This document shows positions 1 to 62,183 of a stretch of 64,000 nt of DNA, piece by piece. Every line of letters starts with the position of its first letter. The first letter of the stretch is position 1. Origin of the DNA: a virus (taxonomy: Duplodnaviria > Caudoviricetes); IMG/VR virus record IMGVR_UViG_3300009314_000001, one strand, 5' to 3'. Under the pieces are notes generated by a model. That model was not told the DNA's origin. It made no database searches and was given only the letters and a program-made list of their open reading frames with translations. Made by a program: the position numbers and the translations under genes.

Positions 1-563
1 GATGCTCCTTTTCCGATATCCATGGCACTAATAATATTCCTACGTAGCCATGAGATAAATGAGGATCTCGATTCGTCATGCCCTTCTGCGAATGCTTCGC
101 TAAGTCCTAGTAAGCCATTACCGAATAGGTCTAGTACGAAGGTCAAGTCTTTGTCGCGACCTTTATTCCTTGCTATCATTCGGGCTAGCCGCCACATGGG
201 AGATCCACCCATATGTCCGTATGTTGGGCTTCTTGGGTGGTCTTTATGTGCGCTAGGACTTGGGTCACCTGAGTCATTATATAATAGGGATGGGTCACCG
301 GCGTAGGCGATGGTTATTTCGTCGGTTGTCCAGCGTGGGGCTGGACCATTTGGTTTGAATTCTGGGGGTGGATCGCTTCTACTGGTCCATTCACCCTTCC
401 ATAGTGGATTTGGTGTTAGTGGTCCTATAGTGTGATATAGGGCGTCTTCTGCGAATTGACGGTCATAGTCTGGGGAACCTGGATCTTTCCATGCGGTATA
501 ATTAGCACCTGATTCTATTAGTAGGGATAATTTATTCTGTAGCCTGTCAAGTATTGATGACAT
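1..563 (-). CDS. Partial (runs off window edge) sigma-70 region-2-like protein with N-terminal extension
   Basis: Hand translation: AGGAG RBS, ATG at 563, open to position 1. Contains MWRLARMIARNK..DLTFVLDLFGNGLLGLSEAF..SSFISWLRRNIISAM, which resembles sigma-70 regions 2.1-2.4. Absent from the ORF track. Confidence 0.55.
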   Translation of the reverse strand, partial: MSSILDRLQNKLSLLIESGANYTAWKDPGSPDYDRQFAEDALYHTIGPLTPNPLWKGEWTSRSDPPPEFKPNGPAPRWTTDEITIAYAGDPSLLYNDSGDPSPSAHKDHPRSPTYGHMGGSPMWRLARMIARNKGRDKDLTFVLDLFGNGLLGLSEAFAEGHDESRSSFISWLRRNIISAMDIGKGA

Positions 564-590
564 AGTGATTCTCCTAGATATTGCTATTAA

Positions 591-598
591 TATATTTG
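591..598 (-). promoter_or_regulatory. CAAANATA motif (putative late promoter)
   Basis: CAAATATA on the minus strand, 27 nt upstream of ATG 563. Confidence 0.45.
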
Positions 599-602
599 CG
601 GA

Positions 603-629
603 TTTAACCTATAAGATCTATTGGTAACA
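603..629 (+). promoter_or_regulatory. TTTAACN-N14-GTAACA motif (putative early promoter)
   Basis: tttaacc-tataagatctattg-gtaaca upstream of ORF 684. Confidence 0.6.
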
Positions 630-683
630 CCTTTACAGAGGTAATCAAGGCACACAGATGGAGATGTATTGCTATTCTAAATC

Positions 684-986
684 ATGAACTTCGACGCATT
701 TGAAATTGTCTCTATTGATAGAAGAAAAACCTTCGTAGAGGTTGTGTATAGGGATGATGGTGAGACGGAAGTTCCAGGAGCCGATTGTGTACTTATCGAA
801 GAAACCGCCCAATTGAAACTAAATTTGGGGCAACCAGCGGCGGCATTGTACGAAGATGTTGCTCGTGAGATCTCCTGGATAGATCAATTGGATGCCCATA
901 CTTTCAAAATGAGAGTCGATATTCACGATTGGGATTTTGACGATGGCGAATCACAAACGGAAGAGAAGCAGCAAACGGAGCGTTAG
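684..986 (+). CDS. Hypothetical protein
   Basis: 100-aa ORF downstream of a promoter motif. Confidence 0.55.
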   Translation: MNFDAFEIVSIDRRKTFVEVVYRDDGETEVPGADCVLIEETAQLKLNLGQPAAALYEDVAREISWIDQLDAHTFKMRVDIHDWDFDDGESQTEEKQQTER

Positions 987-1091
987 GTGCACTATCTGTA
1001 CTACCCATCGCTGGTTAGGTAACGCTAGGGAGCGATTCAAGAAAAAAGACGAACAAGAAATGCGGGACAAAGAAAGGCTTGAAGAAAGATC

Positions 1092-1337
1092 ATGCAACAT
1101 AAAGAATTAGGCGAACTTCTCCCAGAAGAAGGCCTCCAAGTAATTGCAGAATTTAAGGAGGAATTGGCCGCTGGTCAATATGATCGTATGGACTATTTAG
1201 ATGTCCATGCTGTGTTGCGTGCTCGGTTACGTCCGTTTCGCGAGTATTCCAGCGTCAGGGGAATGACTGATGAGGATTATTTCGTGCTTGTGATCCTCCA
1301 AGGATTGGGTGTGAAAGGCACGGAACAATTCATGTAG
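1092..1337 (+). CDS. Hypothetical protein
   Basis: 81-aa ORF; its TAG stop overlaps the first base of the following tRNA. Confidence 0.5.
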   Translation: MQHKELGELLPEEGLQVIAEFKEELAAGQYDRMDYLDVHAVLRARLRPFREYSSVRGMTDEDYFVLVILQGLGVKGTEQFM

Positions 1338-1408
1338 GGCCTATAGCACAACGGTTAGTGCGCCGGACTCATAATCCGTGGATGGGGGTTCGATTCCCTC
1401 TAGGCCCA
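1337..1408 (+). tRNA. tRNA with CAT anticodon (Ile2 or elongator Met)
   Basis: Acceptor GGGCCTA/TAGGCCC, loop CTCATAA, GGTTCGATTCC T-arm. The G1:C72 pair argues against an initiator. CCA is not encoded. Confidence 0.9.
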
Positions 1409-1410
1409 CT

Positions 1411-1596
1411 GCCGGAACGGTATGGCATTAAACTGTGTGGGAGGGTTGTTCGAGATAATCCGTGACCTTTTGATCACATAGGACCGTTCAACGGCTGTGG
1501 ATCTGATTACGAGACAAATACTGATCAGCCAATAGAAAAAGATCGGCATGCCAGTGTCAAAACAGATTAGTTCAACTCAAACTGGCCAGATCCACT
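1411..1596 (+). ncRNA. Candidate structured ncRNA between two tRNAs
   Basis: Stems gaacggt/accgttc, ctgtgtg/cacatag, gtggatctg/cagatccac, ctgatc/gatcgg, ccagt/actgg; no ORF in the track. Confidence 0.5.
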
Positions 1597-1598
1597 AC

Positions 1599-1673
1599 GC
1601 GCCGATGGTCTGATAAGGCAAGACAGCTCCTCTCGTTTAGGAGCGGACGTAGGTTCGAATCCTACTCGGTGCG
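1599..1673 (+). tRNA. Atypical tRNA: Glu-like body with a 9-nt anticodon loop
   Basis: Acceptor GCGCCGA/TCGGTGC, D-stem GTCT/AGAC, stem GCTCC/GGAGC around TCTCGTTTA, T-arm GTAGG-TTCGAAT-CCTAC, G73. Confidence 0.7.
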
Positions 1674-1676
1674 CTT

Positions 1677-2417
1677 ATGCAAACTCGAAGTATCAGACTA
1701 GTTAAACCAGATGATGGGGGATACCGCAAATACTGCAGATATCACTCACTGAGGAATGTAACTCTCCGCGAAAAATGCAAAACATCCAAAGTTCAAGAAT
1801 TATCAGGAGCGATGGAGAAGATCGCCAGGTTTTGGATATCAAGACATACATCAATTCTTGATGAGAGAATTCTTGGATACGAAGAGCGGGTGACGAAAGA
1901 CAGATGGATTTCAAGATATCGAGAAGTGGATGTGGTTCTTGGTGATGACAATCCTGAAACTTTTGTTGAAATCAAGTTCTCATCGAGGAATGCTGTCGCA
2001 GCTGCTACTTACAGAGCAAGAACACAAGTACACACAACATTAAAGGTAGCATGGAGGAAATGGGCTAGGTTACGAGCTTGTGTATTAGGAGTTGCTTTCA
2101 ATTACTATGAACGCGAGGTACGTGACCTTAACTATGTGGATCTGAACAAAACAATCGCTAAGTGTCCTGAAGGTCCTAGTACTAATATGGACCAATTTCC
2201 ATACGTAGTTGTCAATGCGAGACAATTATGGGAATTTGGTGTGAATCATGGGGTAATCAAGGAGAAATTTAATCTCTTCGATGAAGCTGTAACAGAAAAG
2301 CTCAGTGGAGAGAGTAAGAAGATAGGTAAACGACGAAGGGGTGATTACAAGCCCTATGAAACGGGGGATTTTGAAAAGACAGCTCTTCAGATTGCTCTTG
2401 AAGAGGCAGGGCATTGA
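1677..2417 (+). CDS. PD-(D/E)XK superfamily nuclease
   Basis: E..(REVDVV)..(FVEIKFS) catalytic motif arrangement. Confidence 0.6.
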   Translation: MQTRSIRLVKPDDGGYRKYCRYHSLRNVTLREKCKTSKVQELSGAMEKIARFWISRHTSILDERILGYEERVTKDRWISRYREVDVVLGDDNPETFVEIKFSSRNAVAAATYRARTQVHTTLKVAWRKWARLRACVLGVAFNYYEREVRDLNYVDLNKTIAKCPEGPSTNMDQFPYVVVNARQLWEFGVNHGVIKEKFNLFDEAVTEKLSGESKKIGKRRRGDYKPYETGDFEKTALQIALEEAGH

Positions 2418-2419
2418 AG

Positions 2420-2762
2420 TGAGGTGTTGGTCGAGATTCCATTGAAAACTCGACAACTGGCCTTAGTCTCGAACTGGGTTGGGAGCGTCACCTGCTTCCT
2501 AGGCTAGCATGGGGAAGTGGTGAGACTACCAGGAAGGCTGATACTGGACCGGGGATAGTGCTAATCATGTCGTTAGAGGGCGGGAGCGATAGTGCTTCTG
2601 CTAACCAGCCTAGAGCTGTCTAAGGATGAGTGTACTATTCGATAGCCGCAAGCGTTCAACCGGTGCGACACCTGCTGCAGTCCGGCTCATAACCGGTAGC
2701 TGAAAGTGGCGTGACAGCTAATGCTGCTTAGAGATGAGTAGTGGGAGAGACCGCCCATTTTT
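2420..2762 (+). ncRNA. Candidate large ornate ncRNA
   Basis: At least 7 complementary segments, a possible pseudoknot, an embedded CCGG-CTCATAA-CCGG anticodon-like arm and a terminal T-run. Confidence 0.5.
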
Positions 2763-3158
2763 AAATTGTAGTTTGCGACCAGCATGCAATTTACGATGGT
2801 GATTAGCACAGATGATTTCACAACCGTTTACTTCTTCCATCAACTTTTTGGAAGGGATGTTTCTGGAAACAAAATTAGCAATGCTGAATTCTTTCTTGTC
2901 GGGATCAGGATGATGGAAATCAAGAGCAATTGGGTCCGATTCATCACAATCCAAGATGCAACAGCCTTTTTGTTGCTTAAGATCACTTACGGCTTTGCGT
3001 TTTTGGTTTCGTCTTTTGTTGACGGCCTCTTTGTAAGACCTGGATCGACATCGTTTGCCTTGGCACGTTTTGCAGGCATAGCTATAACCTCTGCCGCGAG
3101 ACGAGTCTTTGTAGAACTCAGAAGGATCTTTGTCGGCTTTGCATTTTGAACATTTCAT
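2718..3158 (-). CDS. HNH (homing) endonuclease
   Basis: CxxC zinc finger, then LDFHHPDP...CEIICANHHRKLH. Probable start is MKCSKC at 3158. Confidence 0.8.
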   Translation of the reverse strand: MKCSKCKADKDPSEFYKDSSRGRGYSYACKTCQGKRCRSRSYKEAVNKRRNQKRKAVSDLKQQKGCCILDCDESDPIALDFHHPDPDKKEFSIANFVSRNIPSKKLMEEVNGCEIICANHHRKLHAGRKLQFKNGRSLPLLISKQH

Positions 3159-3196
3159 GGTGCGTGGGTCCTTTCCCCACACCATTTTTGACTGAA

Positions 3197-3272
3197 GATG
3201 GGTGATTAGGTCGCGGGCAGCGGCAGCGAGATTGCAACCCTCGCATTATCGGTTCGACTCCGACGCCCATCT
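3197..3272 (+). tRNA. trnC: tRNA-Cys(GCA), atypical D-arm region
   Basis: GATGGGT/GCCCATC acceptor, TTGCAAC loop, TTCGACT T-loop, U73. Confidence 0.75.
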
Positions 3273-3313
3273 CTTAATTTTATCGTGCAAACCTAATGTA
3301 GGAGGTTCGCACG

Positions 3314-3850
3314 ATGAGTAGTAACGAGTACATGGCTAGGTATATGGCAGATAGGTATCTGCGGCTCAAGATCCGAGCAATTGAATACAAAGGCGGTAAA
3401 TGTTCGAAATGTGGTTATAACAAGTGTTACGCTGCATTAGAATTTCATCACCGAGATCCAAAAGCAAAAGAATACAGTTGGACGCAACTTAGGAAATTCA
3501 GTTGGGAACGCGTTAAAACTGAGTTGGATAAATGCGATTTGATTTGTTCGAATTGCCATAAAGAAACACACTGGGATCCAGATCTTTTGGTTGCTGTTCT
3601 TCAGAGGCATGAAGATAGACAACCAAAACCGGACCAGAATTGTAAAGAATGTGGTGTTACTTTCAGAGGTCCTACGAGACAAGAATTTTGTGGTCATAAA
3701 TGTGCACAAAAGAATAAAGAGAAGATCAGTTGGCCACAAAACTTACCAGAATTAGTTGTTAAGAGTTCGAAAAGAGCTGTTGCGGCTCAGCTAGGAATCT
3801 CTGATAAAGCTGTTGCAAAACGGCTGCGAAATCATCATGTGCTCCAGTAG
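3314..3850 (+). CDS. HNH endonuclease with C-terminal Zn-finger/HTH
   Basis: GGKCSKCGY..ALEFHHRDP..KCDLICSNCHKETH; GGAGG RBS; the stop codon lies inside tRNA-Arg. Confidence 0.85.
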   Translation: MSSNEYMARYMADRYLRLKIRAIEYKGGKCSKCGYNKCYAALEFHHRDPKAKEYSWTQLRKFSWERVKTELDKCDLICSNCHKETHWDPDLLVAVLQRHEDRQPKPDQNCKECGVTFRGPTRQEFCGHKCAQKNKEKISWPQNLPELVVKSSKRAVAAQLGISDKAVAKRLRNHHVLQ

Positions 3851-3915
3851 CTCAGTTGGATAGTAGCAACGGTCTTCTAAACCGTAGGTCGCAGGTTCGA
3901 ATCCTGCCTGGAGTG
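3841..3915 (+). tRNA. trnR: tRNA-Arg(TCT)
   Basis: GCTCCAG/CTGGAGT acceptor, loop CTTCTAA, GGTTCGAATCC. Confidence 0.92.
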
Positions 3916-3919
3916 CCTT

Positions 3920-4006
3920 ATGAAATGGTTTGACATCCCACTAATACTGACGGGCTTACTAATCCTTGGTGTCTTTGGATTTGTACTTATTTTTCTGGTG
4001 ACATAA
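3920..4006 (+). CDS. Small hydrophobic peptide (28 aa)
   Basis: Hand translation MKWFDIPLILTGLLILGVFGFVLIFLVT; one TM-like segment. Confidence 0.35.
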   Translation: MKWFDIPLILTGLLILGVFGFVLIFLVT

Positions 4007-4173
4007 TGCGAAAAGACGATGCAAATCTTCGTGATTGGTGCAAACACTCCAGGAATTCTTCCCTGGGGAAGCGTGGCGTTAATCAGAAAAATCGCCGGAA
4101 GGTGAGAGAACATCTTCATCATGACAAAGTAGAATTAATTCGTGCTCCTCGCACGCAACAAAATAGAACTTAG
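4006..4173 (+). CDS. Small basic peptide (55 aa)
   Basis: TAATG overlap with the previous ORF; MRKDDANLRDWCKHSRNSS...; the stop overlaps the start of tRNA-Leu. Confidence 0.35.
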   Translation: MRKDDANLRDWCKHSRNSSLGKRGVNQKNRRKVREHLHHDKVELIRAPRTQQNRT

Positions 4174-4254
4174 GCCTTGTGGCGGAACTGGCAGACGCGC
4201 CTGGCTTAGGACCAGGTTCCCAAGGGAGTGCAGGTTCGAATCCTGTCAAGGCTA
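4173..4254 (+). tRNA. trnL: tRNA-Leu(TAG)
   Basis: GGCCTTG/CAAGGCT acceptor, CCTGG-CTTAGGA-CCAGG, long variable arm, A73. Confidence 0.93.
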
Positions 4255-4256
4255 CT

Positions 4257-4404
4257 AATCGAGTGCTTCGGCATGGTAAGGCTTCCGGTCCGTTTGGATG
4301 ACAGCAGCTTACACCGCCCGGTCCAGTCGAGATAAACCTTTAAGGTGAAGGCTCAATGGTGACCCTCCTCCCGTCCAGAACGGGAGAGAAAACCGGGCTC
4401 GATT
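4257..4404 (+). ncRNA. Candidate 148-nt multibranch ncRNA
   Basis: Closing aatcgag/ctcgatt, cUUCGg hairpin, gtaag/cttac, cccggt/accggg, ctcccgt/acgggag; followed by a T-run. Confidence 0.5.
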
Positions 4405-4444
4405 TTTGGTTTGATTCTGGCAACTGTTTACCTAACCGTTCGTG

Positions 4445-4452
4445 CAAACATA
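4445..4452 (+). promoter_or_regulatory. CAAANATA motif
   Basis: CAAACATA 20 nt upstream of ATG 4473. Confidence 0.4.
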
Positions 4453-4472
4453 GGTTTTAGGAGGTAGTTGTC

Positions 4473-5009
4473 ATGGGTATCAAATTTCAACTTAAACCGA
4501 TTGCACAGAAACTTCGTGACTTAGGCTTTTCAATAACGAAAATAGCGGAGGTTCTTGAATGTTCAAGGACTTACACTGGTCAGATACTAAAGTCTAGTGA
4601 GCCCGATATAGGTTCTGCGGTTGATGATATTTTGGGGCCGGAGGATCAAGAGTTTCTAAGGGTCAAAGCAGTCCATAGATGTATGGAGGTATTGAGTGGG
4701 CGTGGGTGGTTTTGTGCCGAAACTGATCCGAAATGTGTTTTTGATGTGTTGGCTTATAAAGATGGAAAAACCAGAAAGATACAAGTTAAAAGTTCAGCGA
4801 CAATAAAAGATGACACTGCGCCACAGTTTAATATTGGTAGGATCAGATTCAATACATCGCGGACTCAAAGAGATCGATACGTTGAAGGTGATTTTGACTA
4901 TTGGTTCTTTTATTATAAAAATGGTGATTGCTGGTTGATCCCATTTGATGAAGTACACGCAGTATCATCTGTGAGGATGATTGGATTCAACAAGTTTTAT
5001 GTAGGATAA
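4473..5009 (+). CDS. HTH + PD-(D/E)XK endonuclease (group I intron-associated type, free-standing)
   Basis: N-terminal GFSITKIAEVLECSRTY HTH; FDVLAYKDG..KIQVKS motif. Confidence 0.75.
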   Translation: MGIKFQLKPIAQKLRDLGFSITKIAEVLECSRTYTGQILKSSEPDIGSAVDDILGPEDQEFLRVKAVHRCMEVLSGRGWFCAETDPKCVFDVLAYKDGKTRKIQVKSSATIKDDTAPQFNIGRIRFNTSRTQRDRYVEGDFDYWFFYYKNGDCWLIPFDEVHAVSSVRMIGFNKFYVG

Positions 5010-5013
5010 TGAC

Positions 5014-5100
5014 GGAAGAGCAAGCCAATTGGCGGTGGCCGTTGATTTGAAATCAATTAGGAGTTAATGACTCGTGCAGGTTCGATTCCTGTCTCTTCCG
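5014..5100 (+). tRNA. trnS: tRNA-Ser(TGA)
   Basis: GGAAGAG/CTCTTCC acceptor, loop TTTGAAA, long variable arm, G73. Confidence 0.88.
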
Positions 5101-5133
5101 CTTCTGAGATCAGGATAGAATAAAGGGAAAATC

Positions 5134-5667
5134 ATGAAATGTTACGCTTGGATTCTGTTGGTTTTTGTACCCACATCAGCACTCGCTCAATTGGACACGT
5201 CTGGTCTCTCAGACGAACAAGAAGCTGAACTACAGCTTCAAATCGCAAAAATGAAAAACGACAAGCTCCCCGCCTCCGCCGAAGAAGCCGAAAAATGGGC
5301 CGCATGGGGAACAGGAATCGGAAAAGCTATCTCATCCACCGCCAGTGAACTCGGCGTCGCCGTTGACGAATTCTCATGTACGCCGGTCTGCCAGATCACA
5401 ATAGGTGTGATCGTCTACAAAGTCATCGGTAAAGACATACTACGAGCCCTCGCAGGCTTTACCCTATTCTTTGCAACTATCTTCGTATGGGTAAAATGGC
5501 TACGAAAACCATTCGTGAAGATTCAATACGACGGGGATGGTAAAGTGAAAAGTCGAGAATATCGTGCACCCGATAGTGACGCAGAATTAGCTATCTATTG
5601 GGTTCATAACTGGTTGACACTAATCGCAGGTATCCTAGCCTCATTCCTTGTCGCTTTTGCAGGATAA
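5134..5667 (+). CDS. Membrane protein with signal peptide
   Basis: N-terminal signal (..TSALAQ) and several hydrophobic segments. Confidence 0.65.
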   Translation: MKCYAWILLVFVPTSALAQLDTSGLSDEQEAELQLQIAKMKNDKLPASAEEAEKWAAWGTGIGKAISSTASELGVAVDEFSCTPVCQITIGVIVYKVIGKDILRALAGFTLFFATIFVWVKWLRKPFVKIQYDGDGKVKSREYRAPDSDAELAIYWVHNWLTLIAGILASFLVAFAG

Positions 5668-5669
5668 TC

Positions 5670-5954
5670 ATGGACGAAAAAATCCAAAAAATCCTAGACA
5701 ACGAAGTCGAATTCACTATACTAAGACGGCACGAGTCGAAGGGTATAGCAGTACTAGAGGTGGATTTTCCGAACTGTCCTCCACCGGTCAGGAGAAAGAT
5801 CTTAGTCTATAAAGGAAACGTACCGCCAGAAAATGCGGAAAGAATATTACCTCATTTCGGACATGAATCATCACCATGTGCTAGATTTAATCCCGATCAG
5901 AACGGTTGGGACAGAGCAATAAAATTTGCCACATTATTGATAAATGGTGGTTAA
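5670..5954 (+). CDS. Hypothetical protein
   Basis: 94-aa ORF, operonic spacing. Confidence 0.55.
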   Translation: MDEKIQKILDNEVEFTILRRHESKGIAVLEVDFPNCPPPVRRKILVYKGNVPPENAERILPHFGHESSPCARFNPDQNGWDRAIKFATLLINGG

Positions 5955-5958
5955 TAGA

Positions 5959-5985
5959 TTTAACTTCGAGAACCGGTTTGTCACA
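5959..5985 (+). promoter_or_regulatory. TTTAACN-N14-GTCACA variant
   Basis: tttaact-tcgagaaccggttt-gtcaca; abuts the start of tRNA-Leu. Confidence 0.4.
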
Positions 5986-6069
5986 GCCCCGTGGTGGAAA
6001 TGGTAGACACAGTGGACTTAAAATCCGCTGCTCATTTTGAGCGTGCAGGTTCGACTCCTGTCGGGGCTA
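5985..6069 (+). tRNA. trnL: tRNA-Leu(TAA)
   Basis: AGCCCCG/CGGGGCT acceptor, loop CTTAAAA, long variable arm, A73. Confidence 0.92.
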
Positions 6070-6080
6070 CTGGAGGAAAA

Positions 6081-6296
6081 ATGGCCAAACGAATCATCCC
6101 GCGAGAAGTAGTTATACAAGCCTGTAAGGACTTATACGCCAGAAATGAAAACGCTGGTACGTGGATCGATAGGAGAATCCCCGATAGTTGGTATAAAATA
6201 CGTGAGATATATGGATTCGACGACGACGATATGTGGGTAATGGTCGTCGAGGGAATCGTCAATAGAGAAGCAGTCAAACTAGTTGCAGAACAATGA
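6081..6296 (+). CDS. Hypothetical protein
   Basis: GGAGG RBS before ATG 6081 (the track start at 5991 lies inside the tRNA). Confidence 0.6.
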   Translation: MAKRIIPREVVIQACKDLYARNENAGTWIDRRIPDSWYKIREIYGFDDDDMWVMVVEGIVNREAVKLVAEQ

Positions 6297-6613
6297 TAAA
6301 ACCAACCCTCTGCCCATGCTGTGGAAACACAGAACTATACACTGGGCACTTAAGCTTCGATAAAATGGGAGTCCACTGTATTTCAGGTACAGAGGATGAT
6401 ACCACATACTGGCTCGTCAGACAAGGCAAGATCAAACCCAAAGACCTTCAAAGACCAGAATTCCAAGGTTGCGGTCTCAAACTTGGAGTTCCCCTACCTT
6501 CAGAATTCCCTGAGGACCTTGTTGGTGATCTGCCGCCAGACGAAGCCATGAGGAAACTAGAGGAATTGACTCTCGAGGAAGCAATCCGCCGCTGGAATAG
6601 GAGATCGCCGTGA
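6293..6613 (+). CDS. Lar-family (restriction alleviation)-like Zn-ribbon protein
   Basis: KPTLCPCCG at the N-terminus and EEAIRRWNRR at the C-terminus. Confidence 0.55.
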   Translation: MIKPTLCPCCGNTELYTGHLSFDKMGVHCISGTEDDTTYWLVRQGKIKPKDLQRPEFQGCGLKLGVPLPSEFPEDLVGDLPPDEAMRKLEELTLEEAIRRWNRRSP

Positions 6614-7755
6614 CCAAAAGTAGAATTTTTATCCCAAAAACATGTCGTGTCGGCTTTCAACATCGCAAAGACACTTTCACTGGCATGCTGGCGTACGTCA
6701 TCTACTACGACGCCCTCGGAAAAATCCGCAAGGAAAAGAGTTGGAAGGGCTGGTGCCACCTCCCAGGCTGTAAGCATCGAGTGTGGCAAGATGGGAAGAA
6801 TGAACAAGTCGACGGAATCGAACCACAAGACTTCGAGAACGTACCAACATCAGGATTTGTCCTCAATAAAGGCATCCGCCGATTCAACTGGTCTCATTTC
6901 GGTAGCGGACGTTCAATGATCCGCATCTACGACCCACGCGGATATGAATTCGAAGTCACCCCTGAGAACCTCATCGGACTTCTAATGCATACGGACTGCT
7001 CCCGCCGCGAGATACAAGGGGAACTCGTCTACGCGTGGCACGGAACTGAGCTCATGCTTTTACCGTGCAACAGCGAAGAGTATGAAGCGGCCAAGAATTT
7101 TACTCAGCTCCAAGCCAAGAAAGTCGGAGCCAGAGAACTCAAAGAAGGCCTCACGTACGTTACGAAAAGTGAGGAGCACCTTGTCTACGTCGGTCGACAC
7201 AAGTGGTTTGCACAAGGTGGCCGATATGAAGACAAGCCACGGAAGGGTGTGAAATGCCATATCTTCTGCGACCTTGAAGGTAAGAAATTCCGACCAATCA
7301 AAAGTGTGCCAAGTACTATTGCCGCCGTTGCGAATGACCAGCCTCATGATGAGATATCAAACTGGATCGACTCGTACTTGGCCTCGAAACCGGCCGCAGA
7401 GGTCGTCGAGTGGATCAAAAAGCCTTTGACGGACAAGGACTGGGATAGGAATTGGGACCACCACAATACTCGTCTCAATGTTTGCATGGATGGTACTAGC
7501 AATCGTGGAACTCCGGTATTTGTGGAGGTTTCTATTACACAGTATCAATATGGTCATGGGTACTATGGAAGAATGTGGAGCAAGCAACAGGCTCAAAAAG
7601 GTGATCTGGTATATCATACCGGTGCTGAGATAAGTCAAGATGGAACAATTCGCCATCATTACAGATGTAACGATGGCGGACGCGTGATCGATAAGAGTAA
7701 ATTCTTTAAACTTCAGGCCAAAATGTCAAACGGCCTAATCCTAGATTGGAGTTAG
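6610..7755 (+). CDS. Hypothetical phage protein (381 aa)
   Basis: Long ORF, 4-bp overlap with the upstream gene. Confidence 0.7.
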   Translation: MTKSRIFIPKTCRVGFQHRKDTFTGMLAYVIYYDALGKIRKEKSWKGWCHLPGCKHRVWQDGKNEQVDGIEPQDFENVPTSGFVLNKGIRRFNWSHFGSGRSMIRIYDPRGYEFEVTPENLIGLLMHTDCSRREIQGELVYAWHGTELMLLPCNSEEYEAAKNFTQLQAKKVGARELKEGLTYVTKSEEHLVYVGRHKWFAQGGRYEDKPRKGVKCHIFCDLEGKKFRPIKSVPSTIAAVANDQPHDEISNWIDSYLASKPAAEVVEWIKKPLTDKDWDRNWDHHNTRLNVCMDGTSNRGTPVFVEVSITQYQYGHGYYGRMWSKQQAQKGDLVYHTGAEISQDGTIRHHYRCNDGGRVIDKSKFFKLQAKMSNGLILDWS

Positions 7756-8205
7756 ATGATGGCAAAGAAAACCGAAACCGCCGACCAAAAAGTCCTCCGC
7801 TTGATGGGACTCGTCAAGGAACAACGCGCAGACATCGGAGCCCTCCAAAGGCCACGATGGAACACCACTTGCAGTCTTGACTTGCCTCAATTGCGACCCG
7901 AACGGATCAATCTGCAGGTCGAAAAGGACTTGTTCGTGCTCTCGTCCGCGATCGGCATCCTGGAACGTATGGCCGCCGATGCCAAGCGAGTAGGTAAAGA
8001 ACTTGAGACCGAGATCGAGCCGCGATGGAAGAACTTCACCATCGAGGAATGGGTGGAAGATTTGAAGCTCCGCATCAAGATCACCCAAATGGAAGCCAGA
8101 CGGCGGAAACTGAAGAAAATGGAATCCACCCTCGATACTCTCATGAGTCCTGAGCAGCGCCGCGAAATGGAGCTGGCAAAGATCGAGGAAGAATTGGATA
8201 TTTAG
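7756..8205 (+). CDS. Hypothetical coiled-coil protein
   Basis: 149-aa ORF abutting the upstream gene. Confidence 0.65.
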   Translation: MMAKKTETADQKVLRLMGLVKEQRADIGALQRPRWNTTCSLDLPQLRPERINLQVEKDLFVLSSAIGILERMAADAKRVGKELETEIEPRWKNFTIEEWVEDLKLRIKITQMEARRRKLKKMESTLDTLMSPEQRREMELAKIEEELDI

Positions 8206-8227
8206 CTCACATCCAAGAGGGTCTGTT

Positions 8228-8584
8228 ATGGATGATGAATACTTCGCCCTCACGAATGATGGTCAAATGACCATGCATCAGATGATCCAAGAACTGGAGC
8301 GAGATCGAGTCGCTCCAGTTATAACGACGGAGAGGGACGGTGTGACAGTCGTTCTTCTATTCAAAACTCCACGAATAATGGACAGATTCGTACAGCGGAA
8401 CTTTCCAAAGGGCTATATATTTGCTCATCTAAAAGTCGAACTTGAGGACTATACAACAATCTTCGACAATGGATGGGATATAGAACGCCTATCGTTCCCT
8501 AGAAAAATGCCCTGTGAAGTATCAATCCTAGAATTAAATCGAAAGGTCGAAGTAAGAAAGCCTAGTTCCGAATGGTCTATCTAA
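8228..8584 (+). CDS. Hypothetical protein
   Basis: 118-aa ORF with GAGG upstream. Confidence 0.55.
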   Translation: MDDEYFALTNDGQMTMHQMIQELERDRVAPVITTERDGVTVVLLFKTPRIMDRFVQRNFPKGYIFAHLKVELEDYTTIFDNGWDIERLSFPRKMPCEVSILELNRKVEVRKPSSEWSI

Positions 8585-9465
8585 GGATGCTAGAGCAATT
8601 CCAATCAACCGGCAAAGAAGAAGGCCGGGAACACATGGAAGGTATGATTCATGTCAATCTAGTCCTACCTGATATCCACAATCCAAATACTCCTCAAAAA
8701 GTCCTAGATATTGATCTCGTAATAGTTGATTCTGATATTACCCCAAGCGAAAGAATGGATGGTTGGGCAATATTGGTTGGACGTATTGCTACCTGGGATT
8801 CTGCTCTATGGAAAATCGCAGAAGTACAACCACTAGAAAACGGAAAATCATGCCTTCTCTGCATAGATAGGATACCAATGCCGAAGCAACAACCAATCCT
8901 TAAAGAACACGCCATCGTCGGAATCCATGAGATAATACCAGCAGAAAAAACACATTTCTGGGATCCAGATCTCGGTTGTATGAGAACGATCGTAATGAGG
9001 TGTGCTCGTAAATGGCAAATACAGCCTATAAAGGGTGATTGGTATAGAATTCCAGCAACTCACGCTATAACTCTATCAAAAGCGACATGGGGTGAGAACT
9101 TCAAAGCACTTTATATCGATTACAGAAAGGAATTTAATCACTCAACATGCACATATGAAATGGTCCGACGTGTTATCGGTACTGACTTTTCTGACCCAAA
9201 CCAAGAAGCTGCTATAGCCATCTGGGTGAAAAGAGCATATCTCGGCAGATATCCTGGGTCATTATTTATCTGCACTGGTGACGAATTATATAGTGGTCTT
9301 ACCTGGACTGATGTTGTTGGGCCGAAGCATGGCAAAGCATCTAGATTCTATAGGACTCATAGGAATCGGATGGTGATATTTGCTAACAAGCGACCTCAGG
9401 AAGAACTAGAGATGATGAAAGAGCTGTTTGATAAGGAACAGCCTAAAGTTGCTTATAAGATGTAA
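8572..9465 (+). CDS. Hypothetical protein
   Basis: 297-aa ORF. Confidence 0.55.
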   Translation: MVYLRMLEQFQSTGKEEGREHMEGMIHVNLVLPDIHNPNTPQKVLDIDLVIVDSDITPSERMDGWAILVGRIATWDSALWKIAEVQPLENGKSCLLCIDRIPMPKQQPILKEHAIVGIHEIIPAEKTHFWDPDLGCMRTIVMRCARKWQIQPIKGDWYRIPATHAITLSKATWGENFKALYIDYRKEFNHSTCTYEMVRRVIGTDFSDPNQEAAIAIWVKRAYLGRYPGSLFICTGDELYSGLTWTDVVGPKHGKASRFYRTHRNRMVIFANKRPQEELEMMKELFDKEQPKVAYKM

Positions 9466-13800: not shown

Positions 13801-13827
13801 TTTAACCCTCGAGAATATTTTGTAACA
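13801..13827 (+). promoter_or_regulatory. TTTAACN-N14-GTAACA motif
   Basis: tttaacc-ctcgagaatatttt-gtaaca, 7 nt before ATG 13835. Confidence 0.65.
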
Positions 13828-30609: not shown

Positions 30610-30996
30610 ATGCCAGTAGCAGCCACCTTCGAATTCTCTAATGAAGCTCGTAGTATCTGGGACGATGTCACAGAGCAAGCCAACGAGCAATTCTACATCA
30701 AGATAGCCCGCCGTTGTCGTAAGCAATTCAAAAGGGATGATTATCCTATCCCACCATTTGCTATGGCGGGTATCGAAGCCCATATGATAATCAAGCACCG
30801 TGGGCTTGCTGCATATGGTTGCAAATGGGTACTATTTGAGAATGATATAGAAGTTCAACAAGGTACTACAGATATTGACGGGATTAACACAGGTATTAAA
30901 ATAGCATTACCATATATCACTAAGATATATCGGCTTGAAATTAACAACAAGCCTATTCCTCGTCACAAAATACCAAATGACGAACACTCAGCTTAA
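30610..30996 (+). CDS. Hypothetical protein
   Basis: 128-aa ORF, operonic. Confidence 0.55.
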   Translation: MPVAATFEFSNEARSIWDDVTEQANEQFYIKIARRCRKQFKRDDYPIPPFAMAGIEAHMIIKHRGLAAYGCKWVLFENDIEVQQGTTDIDGINTGIKIALPYITKIYRLEINNKPIPRHKIPNDEHSA

Positions 30997-50304: not shown

Positions 50305-50332
50305 TGTTACAAAGAGGAATCCATAGGTTAAA
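50305..50332 (-). promoter_or_regulatory. TTTAACN-N15-GTAACA motif
   Basis: tttaacc-tatggattcctcttt-gtaaca upstream of the vWA gene. Confidence 0.6.
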
Positions 50333-56760: not shown

Positions 56761-56787
56761 TTTAACATAGTAGTTCCGACAGTAACA
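56761..56787 (+). promoter_or_regulatory. TTTAACN-N14-GTAACA motif
   Basis: tttaaca-tagtagttccgaca-gtaaca followed by AAGGAG and ATG 56803. Confidence 0.65.
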
Positions 56788-60996: not shown

Positions 60997-61023
60997 TGTT
61001 ACAAATCTGTATCGGAAGTTAAA
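60997..61023 (-). promoter_or_regulatory. TTTAACN-N14-GTAACA motif
   Basis: tttaact-tccgatacagattt-gtaaca upstream of the AAA gene. Confidence 0.65.
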
Positions 61024-62148: not shown

Positions 62149-62158
62149 ACTATACTGT
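62129..62158. repeat. 15-bp tandem duplication
   Basis: ctcatactatactgt x2. Confidence 0.85.
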
Positions 62159-62183
62159 TACGAACAATTATTGTTTAGTTAAT
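62156..62183 (-). promoter_or_regulatory. ATTAACT-N15-GTAACA motif
   Basis: attaact-aaacaataattgttc-gtaaca, 7 nt before ATG 62148. Confidence 0.5.

Follow-up and report, generated by a model that had tools for sequence, protein, structure and literature searches.

An orphan non-coding RNA with a tRNA-Met anticodon-arm look-alike in the tRNA cluster of a marine jumbo phage

The tRNA cluster of an uncultivated marine jumbo phage harbours a stable RNA that is not a tRNA and is a member of no known family. It very probably exists as a discrete, abundant, non-coding species of about 315 nt, and the strongest above-chance evidence for it is its expression, seen in seawater metatranscriptomes as two contigs that fall within a gap between genes. 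A hairpin near its 3' end reproduces, letter for letter, the arm that bears the anticodon in a true phage tRNA-Met(CAU). Positions below are those of the window, by which we mean the whole stretch of DNA analysed (64,000 nt).

Expression and genomic setting

Public sequencing runs were screened with words sampled from positions 2300-2900. Matches came from a marine DNA run, from three seawater metatranscriptomes belonging to the study of that run, and from one DNA run of another study. Other runs (salt lake, sediment and others) contained 4% of the sampled words, a level that is uninformative on habitat. Four runs, two of them RNA runs, were aligned to positions 1-9000 of the window. RNA contig X2 covers 2423-2734 at a depth of 6.5 with 0 mismatches, plus 6 unmatched letters at its start, and RNA contig X3 covers 2476-2734 at a depth of 12.5, again with 0 mismatches. 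The two contigs share the end at 2734. Within the first 9 kb no further RNA contig matches the phage, and the one remaining contig of the RNA runs is a foreign tRNA-Arg-like piece. The DNA runs gave scattered pieces across the whole 9 kb at a depth of about 3. The remaining metatranscriptome of that study, a third RNA run, contained 34% of the words sampled. The RNA runs belong to one study and were selected for containing 2300-2900, and their contigs show neither the strand nor the true ends of the molecule.

The confinement of both contigs to a non-coding gap points to a discrete RNA rather than to DNA contamination or uniform transcription. The gap permits at most about 345 nt, and the contig limits coincide both with it and with the ends of the predicted fold (helix start at 2418, end of the last hairpin at 2729). 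We place the RNA on the + strand with high confidence, on the basis of the folding asymmetry described below, an excess of G over C (100 versus 69) and a hairpin with a T-run at 2740-2762 that is present on this strand only. No spliced joint was found in the RNA contigs. A circular RNA was rejected for want of a joint as well, although such contigs could also come from a circle. An earlier note on this DNA, made from the letters, had proposed a non-coding RNA in the phage tRNA cluster, and an expressed, discrete species is indeed found there. It had also suggested that the RNA might be continuous with 1411-1596. This part found no support: that stretch yielded no contig in the two RNA runs, and a covariance model built on the RNA has no second match in the window. 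The gene-free stretch 4257-4404 of the tRNA cluster likewise yielded no contig, but with runs chosen for 2300-2900 the missing contigs reveal little about the expression of either stretch.

A coding gene was ruled out. Within 2418-2717 the + strand has no ORF of at least 40 aa with a start codon, and the longest open stretch, of 66 codons, lacks a start codon and has no PHROG match. The template of a diversity-generating retroelement (DGR), or another repeat, was likewise ruled out, the RNA having no second copy in the window. The GC content of the RNA region is 53%, compared with 44% for the window, and lies 9-11 points above that of its flanks.

The window is phage-like, and the stretch is identical on JGI contigs from three samples and unchanged in the second SRA study. 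The identical JGI copies, together with a neighbouring 381-aa protein recorded on contigs of up to 340,278 bp, identify the source as an uncultivated marine jumbo phage. Six tRNA genes (ARAGORN, Rfam) form a cluster at 1337-6070 that is interspersed with two HNH genes. The surroundings of the RNA are as follows.

1337-1409, + strand: tRNA-Met(CAT) gene (ARAGORN/Rfam), upstream of the RNA in the same orientation
1411-1596 region: spacer of 186 nt between tRNA-Met and tRNA-Thr
1599-1674, + strand: tRNA-Thr(CGT) gene (ARAGORN/Rfam), upstream of the RNA
1677-2417, + strand: orphan ORF of 246 aa, a weak PD-(D/E)XK-type nuclease (weak Pfam UPF0102/DUF234 matches)
2417-2734, + strand (by deduction): the RNA as seen in the metatranscriptomes, about 312-318 nt (contigs X2 and X3; folding)
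2718-3185, - strand: HNH homing-endonuclease gene, convergent to the RNA (PHROG 2255, E 9e-27)
3314-3850, + strand: second HNH endonuclease gene
4473-5009: PDDEXK_5 nuclease gene

The RNA fills the gap between the 246-aa ORF, at whose stop codon it starts, and the convergent HNH gene. The final ~15 codons of the latter enter the 3' end of the RNA and its terminator, an overlap of 17 nt with the end of the ORF, or 45 nt counting the terminator; the conserved part of the HNH protein stops near residue 140.

No homologue of the 246-aa nuclease was found among 5.8 billion proteins, and its single-sequence AlphaFold model was unusable (pLDDT 31). The DNA unitigs of the best-matching run break at 1676 and 2419, which are the borders of this ORF. 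Its gene probably entered the stretch between tRNA-Thr and the RNA as a mobile insertion; the earlier note had already proposed an insertion with a nuclease, and the unitig breaks fit this idea. They suggest a presence/absence polymorphism of a homing-endonuclease cassette in the population, and in phages without the insertion the RNA would lie directly after tRNA-Thr.

Several other features of the neighbourhood deserve mention in their own right. The public gene call of the JGI contigs opposite the HNH match (2718-3185, - strand) is a 117-aa ORF at 2784-3149 (+), probably a shadow ORF; a deposited shadow ORF would explain why the HNH protein is absent from the protein collection. Between the two HNH genes, a tRNA-like element at 3196-3272 (+) scores 26.8 bits (E 0.015) with the Rfam tRNA-Sec model and 17 bits with the Tymo tRNA-like model, and is called tRNA-Cys(GCA) by ARAGORN at the 90% threshold only. 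With a good T-arm, a 7-bp acceptor stem and an odd D region, it could be a tRNA that is unusual or has degenerated. A reverse-transcriptase gene (Pfam RVT_1; L003 1-981) lies about 2.4-3.4 kb before the first base of the window, just upstream of a 995-aa protein that starts at window position 563. Its product of 452 aa runs off the locus. It could belong to a DGR or another retroelement, and has no sequence link to the RNA.

Predicted fold and the anticodon-arm look-alike

All of the motifs that the earlier note had listed are present in the sequence, namely the helices gtcgag 2430/ctcgac 2449, tagtctc 2464/gagacta 2522, gcttcc 2494/ggaagt 2513, gatagtgc 2554/gtactatt 2632, gggcgg 2578/ccgccc 2751 and tagctg 2697/cagcta 2715, the complementary pair aggctg 2535/cagcct 2606, CCGG-CTCATAA-CCGG at 2682-2696 and the T-run at 2757-2762. 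About 14 complements of 6 bp are expected by chance in 340 nt (57,000 position pairs x 4^-6), and since a single complement of this length is not above chance, the fold was tested as a whole. Segment 2415-2765 has a minimum free energy (MFE) of -126.6 kcal/mol on the + strand (z -2.1) versus -98.2 kcal/mol on the - strand (z -1.0); for 2417-2734 the values are -116.5 kcal/mol (z -1.6) and -86.9 kcal/mol (z -0.4), respectively. The GC-corrected stability on the + strand ranks 54th among 1202 segments across the window, which is suggestive rather than exceptional. The clearest signal comes from the domain 2548-2664, with -43.8 kcal/mol on the + strand (z -2.59; 3 of 200 shuffles equally stable) and -22.4 kcal/mol on the - strand (z +1.43). 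The predicted elements, all on the + strand, are given below with pair probabilities (P) from the Boltzmann ensemble of 2417-2734.

2418-2429, + strand: predicted closing helix, 5' strand, pairing with 2666-2676 (P 0.85-0.93); its start is the 5' end of the RNA contig
2430-2454, + strand: first hairpin, GUCGAG/CUCGAC (P 0.99)
2465-2531, + strand: alternative fold read from the letters, a 7-bp acceptor-like stem (2465-2471/2521-2527) followed by ACCA (2528-2531)
2548-2664, + strand: central three-way-junction domain, the best-supported structure (helices P 0.82-1.00)
2666-2676, + strand: predicted closing helix, 3' strand
2678-2702, + strand: hairpin with the tRNA-Met(CAU) anticodon-arm look-alike (P 0.90-0.99)
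2704-2729, + strand: 3'-terminal hairpin of 9 bp (P 0.93); the RNA contigs stop 5 nt later
2740-2762, + strand: terminator-like hairpin and T-run (z -2.5), outside the RNA contigs

The last of these hairpins is probably the end of the primary transcript. Among the helices proposed earlier, those at 2430/2449 (P 0.99), 2494/2513 (P 0.64) and 2554/2632 (P 1.00) are strongly supported in the ensemble, whereas those at 2464/2522, 2578/2751 and 2697/2715 lose to better local partners. The long-range helix 2578/2751 also finds no support because the contigs end at 2734 and 2578-2587 is locally paired (P 0.99). The proposed pseudoknot is complementary at 2535-2540/2606-2611, but 2606-2609 is locally paired (P 0.98). 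Nor is the description of the RNA as ornate borne out, with an overall z of only about -2 and a sequence from which no covariation is obtainable. The sole population variant seen, 2681 T>C, turns the U.G pair 2681-2699 into C-G. The structure rests on thermodynamics and on this U.G-to-C-G variant, since no homologue, and hence no covariation, was found.

When the RNA was compared with jumbo-phage relatives by BLAST, only query positions 265-283 were matched. The matching letters lie in locus L085, within an authentic tRNA-Met (1474-1550) whose anticodon arm they form. Hairpin 2681-2697 and this arm have the same 16 letters, the match extending over 16-17 nt, so that the CAU anticodon-arm mimic noticed earlier is letter for letter that of a true phage tRNA-Met. 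The arm consists of a 4-bp CCGG stem, the loop CUCAUAA and a pyrimidine mismatch at the 27-43 position. In the RNA the stem is predicted to be 4 bp longer, past a 2-nt bulge, and the 2681 T>C variant falls in this extension, with the pair kept. A second tRNA-like trait is the 7-bp stem followed by ACCA at 2465-2531, within a thermodynamically poorly determined subdomain (2455-2547, z -0.2) that matches no tRNA model.

Homologue searches and known RNA families

Homologues were sought at several levels and none was found: not by blastn of 2400-2780 against 50,697 phage records; not by exact 21-mers in IMG/VR and JGI metagenome contigs; not by BLAST and a covariance model of the MFE structure in 50 whole jumbo-phage records that share the 381-aa protein family; not by BLAST alone in one further record of that family; and not by BLAST and covariance model in the three closest records found via an ATPase (best 68% identity). 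The closest relative among the records searched is a 354-kb one from a sister sample, 98% complete and with the 68% identity in its ATPase; neither BLAST nor the covariance model detected the RNA in it. Over 1.67 Mb of related loci the covariance model matched only the RNA itself, and there are no paralogues within the window; built from a single sequence, this model is weak, and distant structural homologues may escape it. No related RNA was seen in the tRNA regions of genomes G001 and G052. The protein neighbours are themselves divergent, the best relatives of the 381-aa protein among 5.8 billion proteins having 58% identity, with no tRNA cluster kept adjacent, and those of the HNH protein about 50% or less. 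As things stand, the RNA appears to be lineage-specific, judging from these sequence comparisons.

In the closest relative, a gene-free stretch of about 330 nt lies beside tRNA-Arg (G052:C1:259929-260259; L116/L117). It has 53% GC, folds with -123.9 kcal/mol on the + strand versus -88.4 on the - strand and contains repeated pieces resembling tRNA 3' halves, and its sequence is unrelated to our RNA. This stretch, in a like habitat, may encode an orphan RNA of its own.

A cmscan against all 4227 Rfam 15 families returned only tRNAs at the gathering score. At E<=10 nothing relevant was reported, either on 2.1 kb or on the 371-nt stretch 2405-2775 alone. The Rfam models include GOLLD, ROOL, OLE, HEARO, group I and group II introns and small ribozymes, as well as RNase P RNA, 6S RNA, Y RNAs, RF00023 and all tmRNA forms. 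With these models included, the empty result indicates that the RNA is not a GOLLD, ROOL or OLE RNA, an intron, a tmRNA, an RNase P RNA or a Y RNA. The novelty claimed in the earlier note therefore stands, in that Rfam 15 has no matching family, and the search against GOLLD, ROOL, OLE and group I models that it had put forward as a check gave no relevant match at E<=10.

Individual candidates were rejected on further grounds. GOLLD, ROOL and OLE are roughly 580-800 nt long with many conserved helices; no model matched and the RNA contigs span 312 nt. The habitat of such RNAs, in phages near tRNA genes, is found here too, a setting that is typical of them but not defining. A tRNA is excluded by the absence of an RF00005 match in 2405-2775 at E<=10 and of an ARAGORN call, only the anticodon arm being tRNA-like. 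For a Y RNA or YrlA acting with Ro60 there is no Rfam match, and the flanking ORFs tested have no TROVE or vWA family matches. A group I intron lacks an Rfam match and a contig joint, and the RNA is bordered by an intact ORF on one side and by an HNH gene in antisense orientation on the other.

Among known systems, T4 RNAC and RNAD (species 1 and 2) are encoded with the phage tRNA genes and measure about 120-140 nt. Our RNA resembles them in being a non-coding, discrete, non-tRNA species amid phage tRNA genes, a likeness of functional kind and not of sequence or homology. It differs in its length of ~315 nt, in its exact copy of an anticodon arm and in its position between two homing-endonuclease genes. 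The T4 RNAs are stable and abundant, and their function is still unknown (PMC9697503). With tRNA-Met(CAU) itself the RNA shares the 16-nt anticodon arm and an operon that contains true tRNAs, but it has no cloverleaf and no T or D arm, and can neither be charged nor decode. GOLLD and ROOL are large, abundant, phage-borne RNAs of widespread families, often adjoining tRNA genes, and their function is unknown. The kinship with them suggested by the earlier note was not supported, as the RNA has no covariance-model match, is about half their size or less and has no relatives that we could find. Finally, the RNA is like tmRNA (SsrA) in its length, its site in a phage tRNA cluster and a resume-like frame with its stop in a hairpin loop, and unlike it in having neither a tRNA-like domain nor an Rfam match, in its atypical tag and in the predicted pairing of the frame. 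Phage P1 has a weak RF00023 match and a clear ANDxxxxVAA tag, and the RNA has neither.

Transcription, possible role and alternatives

The motif TTAAC-N14-17-GTMACA, for which shuffles predict 0.25 copies, is present 8 times in the window and is probably a phage-specific promoter. Its copies are located as follows.

604-629, + strand: promoter-like motif, nearest copy upstream of the RNA and candidate operon promoter
5960-5985, 13802-13827, 30941-30967 and 56762-56787: further copies
50305-50331, 60997-61022 and 62156-62182, - strand: further copies

The copy at 5960 adjoins tRNA-Leu(TAA); none adjoins the RNA itself. Downstream of 604-629 the order is two small ORFs, tRNA-Met, the spacer, tRNA-Thr, the nuclease ORF and the RNA.

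Taken overall, the best explanation, which we hold tentatively, is a discrete RNA processed from the operon that acts as a mimic or decoy of part of a tRNA. Transcription of the tRNA operon would start from the motif at 604, read through tRNA-Met, tRNA-Thr and the nuclease gene and stop at the terminator at 2740-2762; the RNA would then be excised from this transcript at about 2417-2423 and 2734, with 3' processing assumed. The closing helix 2418-2429/2666-2676 and the 3' hairpin 2704-2729 would shield the ends so that the RNA survives. Acting in trans, it would present the tRNA-Met(CAU) arm, and perhaps the acceptor-like ACCA minihelix, on a large scaffold, and the arm would bind or titrate a host or phage protein such as a tRNA-targeting defence nuclease, a modification enzyme or MetRS. 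Its role would be the non-translating counterpart of the protection proposed for phage tRNAs. Phage tRNAs have been proposed or shown to counter tRNA-cleaving defences, and the decoy logic follows this work (PMC10264068, PMC11555353). This trans-acting mechanism, drawn by analogy, we regard as doubtful, and it is unlikely that the RNA is the first dedicated phage decoy with a tRNA-Met(CAU) arm, absorbing an immune nuclease or capturing a factor that recognises initiator or Met-tRNA. The missing homologues and covariation, the absence of the RNA from the closest relative, the modest z-scores, RNA runs that come from one study and were selected for this stretch, an arm match of only 16-17 nt and the position of the terminator hairpin outside the contigs all count against this best explanation.

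A functionless by-product is possible too and is nearly as likely as the mimic or decoy mechanism, although on its own it remains rather improbable: the RNA would be the RNase-resistant 3' end of the tRNA/nuclease transcript, derived from a lineage-specific spacer or from decayed older tRNA-like genes. An orphan that is absent from the nearest relative, has modest folding z-scores and is flanked by two mobile endonuclease genes, in a zone of high sequence turnover, would be expected on these terms, and the arm could have been left over from a tRNA-Met gene. Against this stand the GC content of 9-11 points over the flanks, the strong strand specificity of the central domain, the neat agreement of fold closure with the contig ends and the identity of the sequence in three JGI samples and the second SRA study. 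A relative or mimic of tmRNA, providing a tag template with the tRNA-like half missing or degenerate and disturbing or replacing host ribosome rescue, is very unlikely, even though a resume context like that of E. coli, AUAGCC|GCA, is present at 2648 and opens a frame of 14 codons, with its UAA stop inside the CUCAUAA loop of the hairpin. Read past this stop, the frame continues as far as GCU AAU GCU GCU UAG (ANAA-stop) at 2731, which leaves 3 nt to the end of the contigs. Of the 50 distant relatives, 8-10 possess canonical tmRNA genes that are about as long (RF00023, 47-151 bits), and P1, checked here, has an ANDDLMMVAA-stop frame. However, the chance of such tag-like endings is estimated at a few per cent, the first tag is atypical, ending in SGS, and most of the putative tag frame is predicted to be paired. 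The stretch 2417-2765 has no T-loop, and neither a G3:U70 acceptor stem nor a 3' ACCA end is present, the sole stem followed by ACCA (2465-2471/2521-2527) being internal, with U-A as its third pair. Nor did the RNA, searched alone, give an RF00023 signal at E<=10; ARAGORN reported no tmRNA at its default and called the RNA at the 60% threshold only, where it made six overlapping calls on both strands of the 2.1 kb.

Chances fainter still attach to the two readings that assign the RNA an architectural or a local regulatory part. A self-assembling ornate RNA like GOLLD, ROOL or raiA, forming a homo-oligomeric scaffold or cage, would suit the phage habitat beside tRNA genes and the very high abundance, and the complementarity of 2535-2540 to 2606-2611 could provide a kissing or pseudoknot contact; opposed to it are the local pairing of 2606-2609 noted above, a length of ~315 nt that is half that of ROOL or less, and the lack of an Rfam match and of conservation. 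GOLLD, ROOL and OLE form RNA-only multimers (PMC12286853). Similarly slim is the prospect of a regulator of the mobile neighbours, either antisense to the 3' end of the HNH mRNA or a cis element for the nuclease mRNA. The RNA does cover the end of the HNH ORF to the extent given above and begins at the stop codon of the nuclease ORF, yet the overlap is restricted to the non-conserved HNH tail, some 300 nt of additional structure would be unnecessary and the nuclease looks like a later insertion. Least credible of all, to the point of being negligible, is a self-splicing intron or other ribozyme tied to the homing endonucleases. A structured phage RNA of ~300 nt flanked by endonuclease genes would be in keeping with it, but no Rfam model of this kind (group I, group II and small-ribozyme models) was matched, no exons are split, as the upstream ORF has its own stop and the downstream + frame is the HNH shadow, and no spliced joint occurs in the contigs.

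The survey of relatives also bears on tmRNA annotation. Loci L095, L096, L098, L099 and L101 (genomes G019, G014, G046, G005 and G049) contain tmRNA genes of 87-151 bits that default ARAGORN missed; it recovered 3 of the 8 full-length tmRNAs of the relatives. Jumbo-phage tmRNA genes are likely to be under-annotated.

The orphan status of the RNA restricts what computation can teach about it, and, were it a mere processing remnant, it would illustrate that abundance in a metatranscriptome does not imply function. What we describe is a compact RNA of a giant phage, visible in ocean metatranscriptomes and equipped with a recognisable handle, the exact anticodon arm of tRNA-Met. If it does act as a mimic or decoy, it would represent a new route by which phages manipulate tRNA-centred host defences or translation, and, should the decoy reading be true, phage tRNA counter-defence would extend to non-translating RNA sponges.
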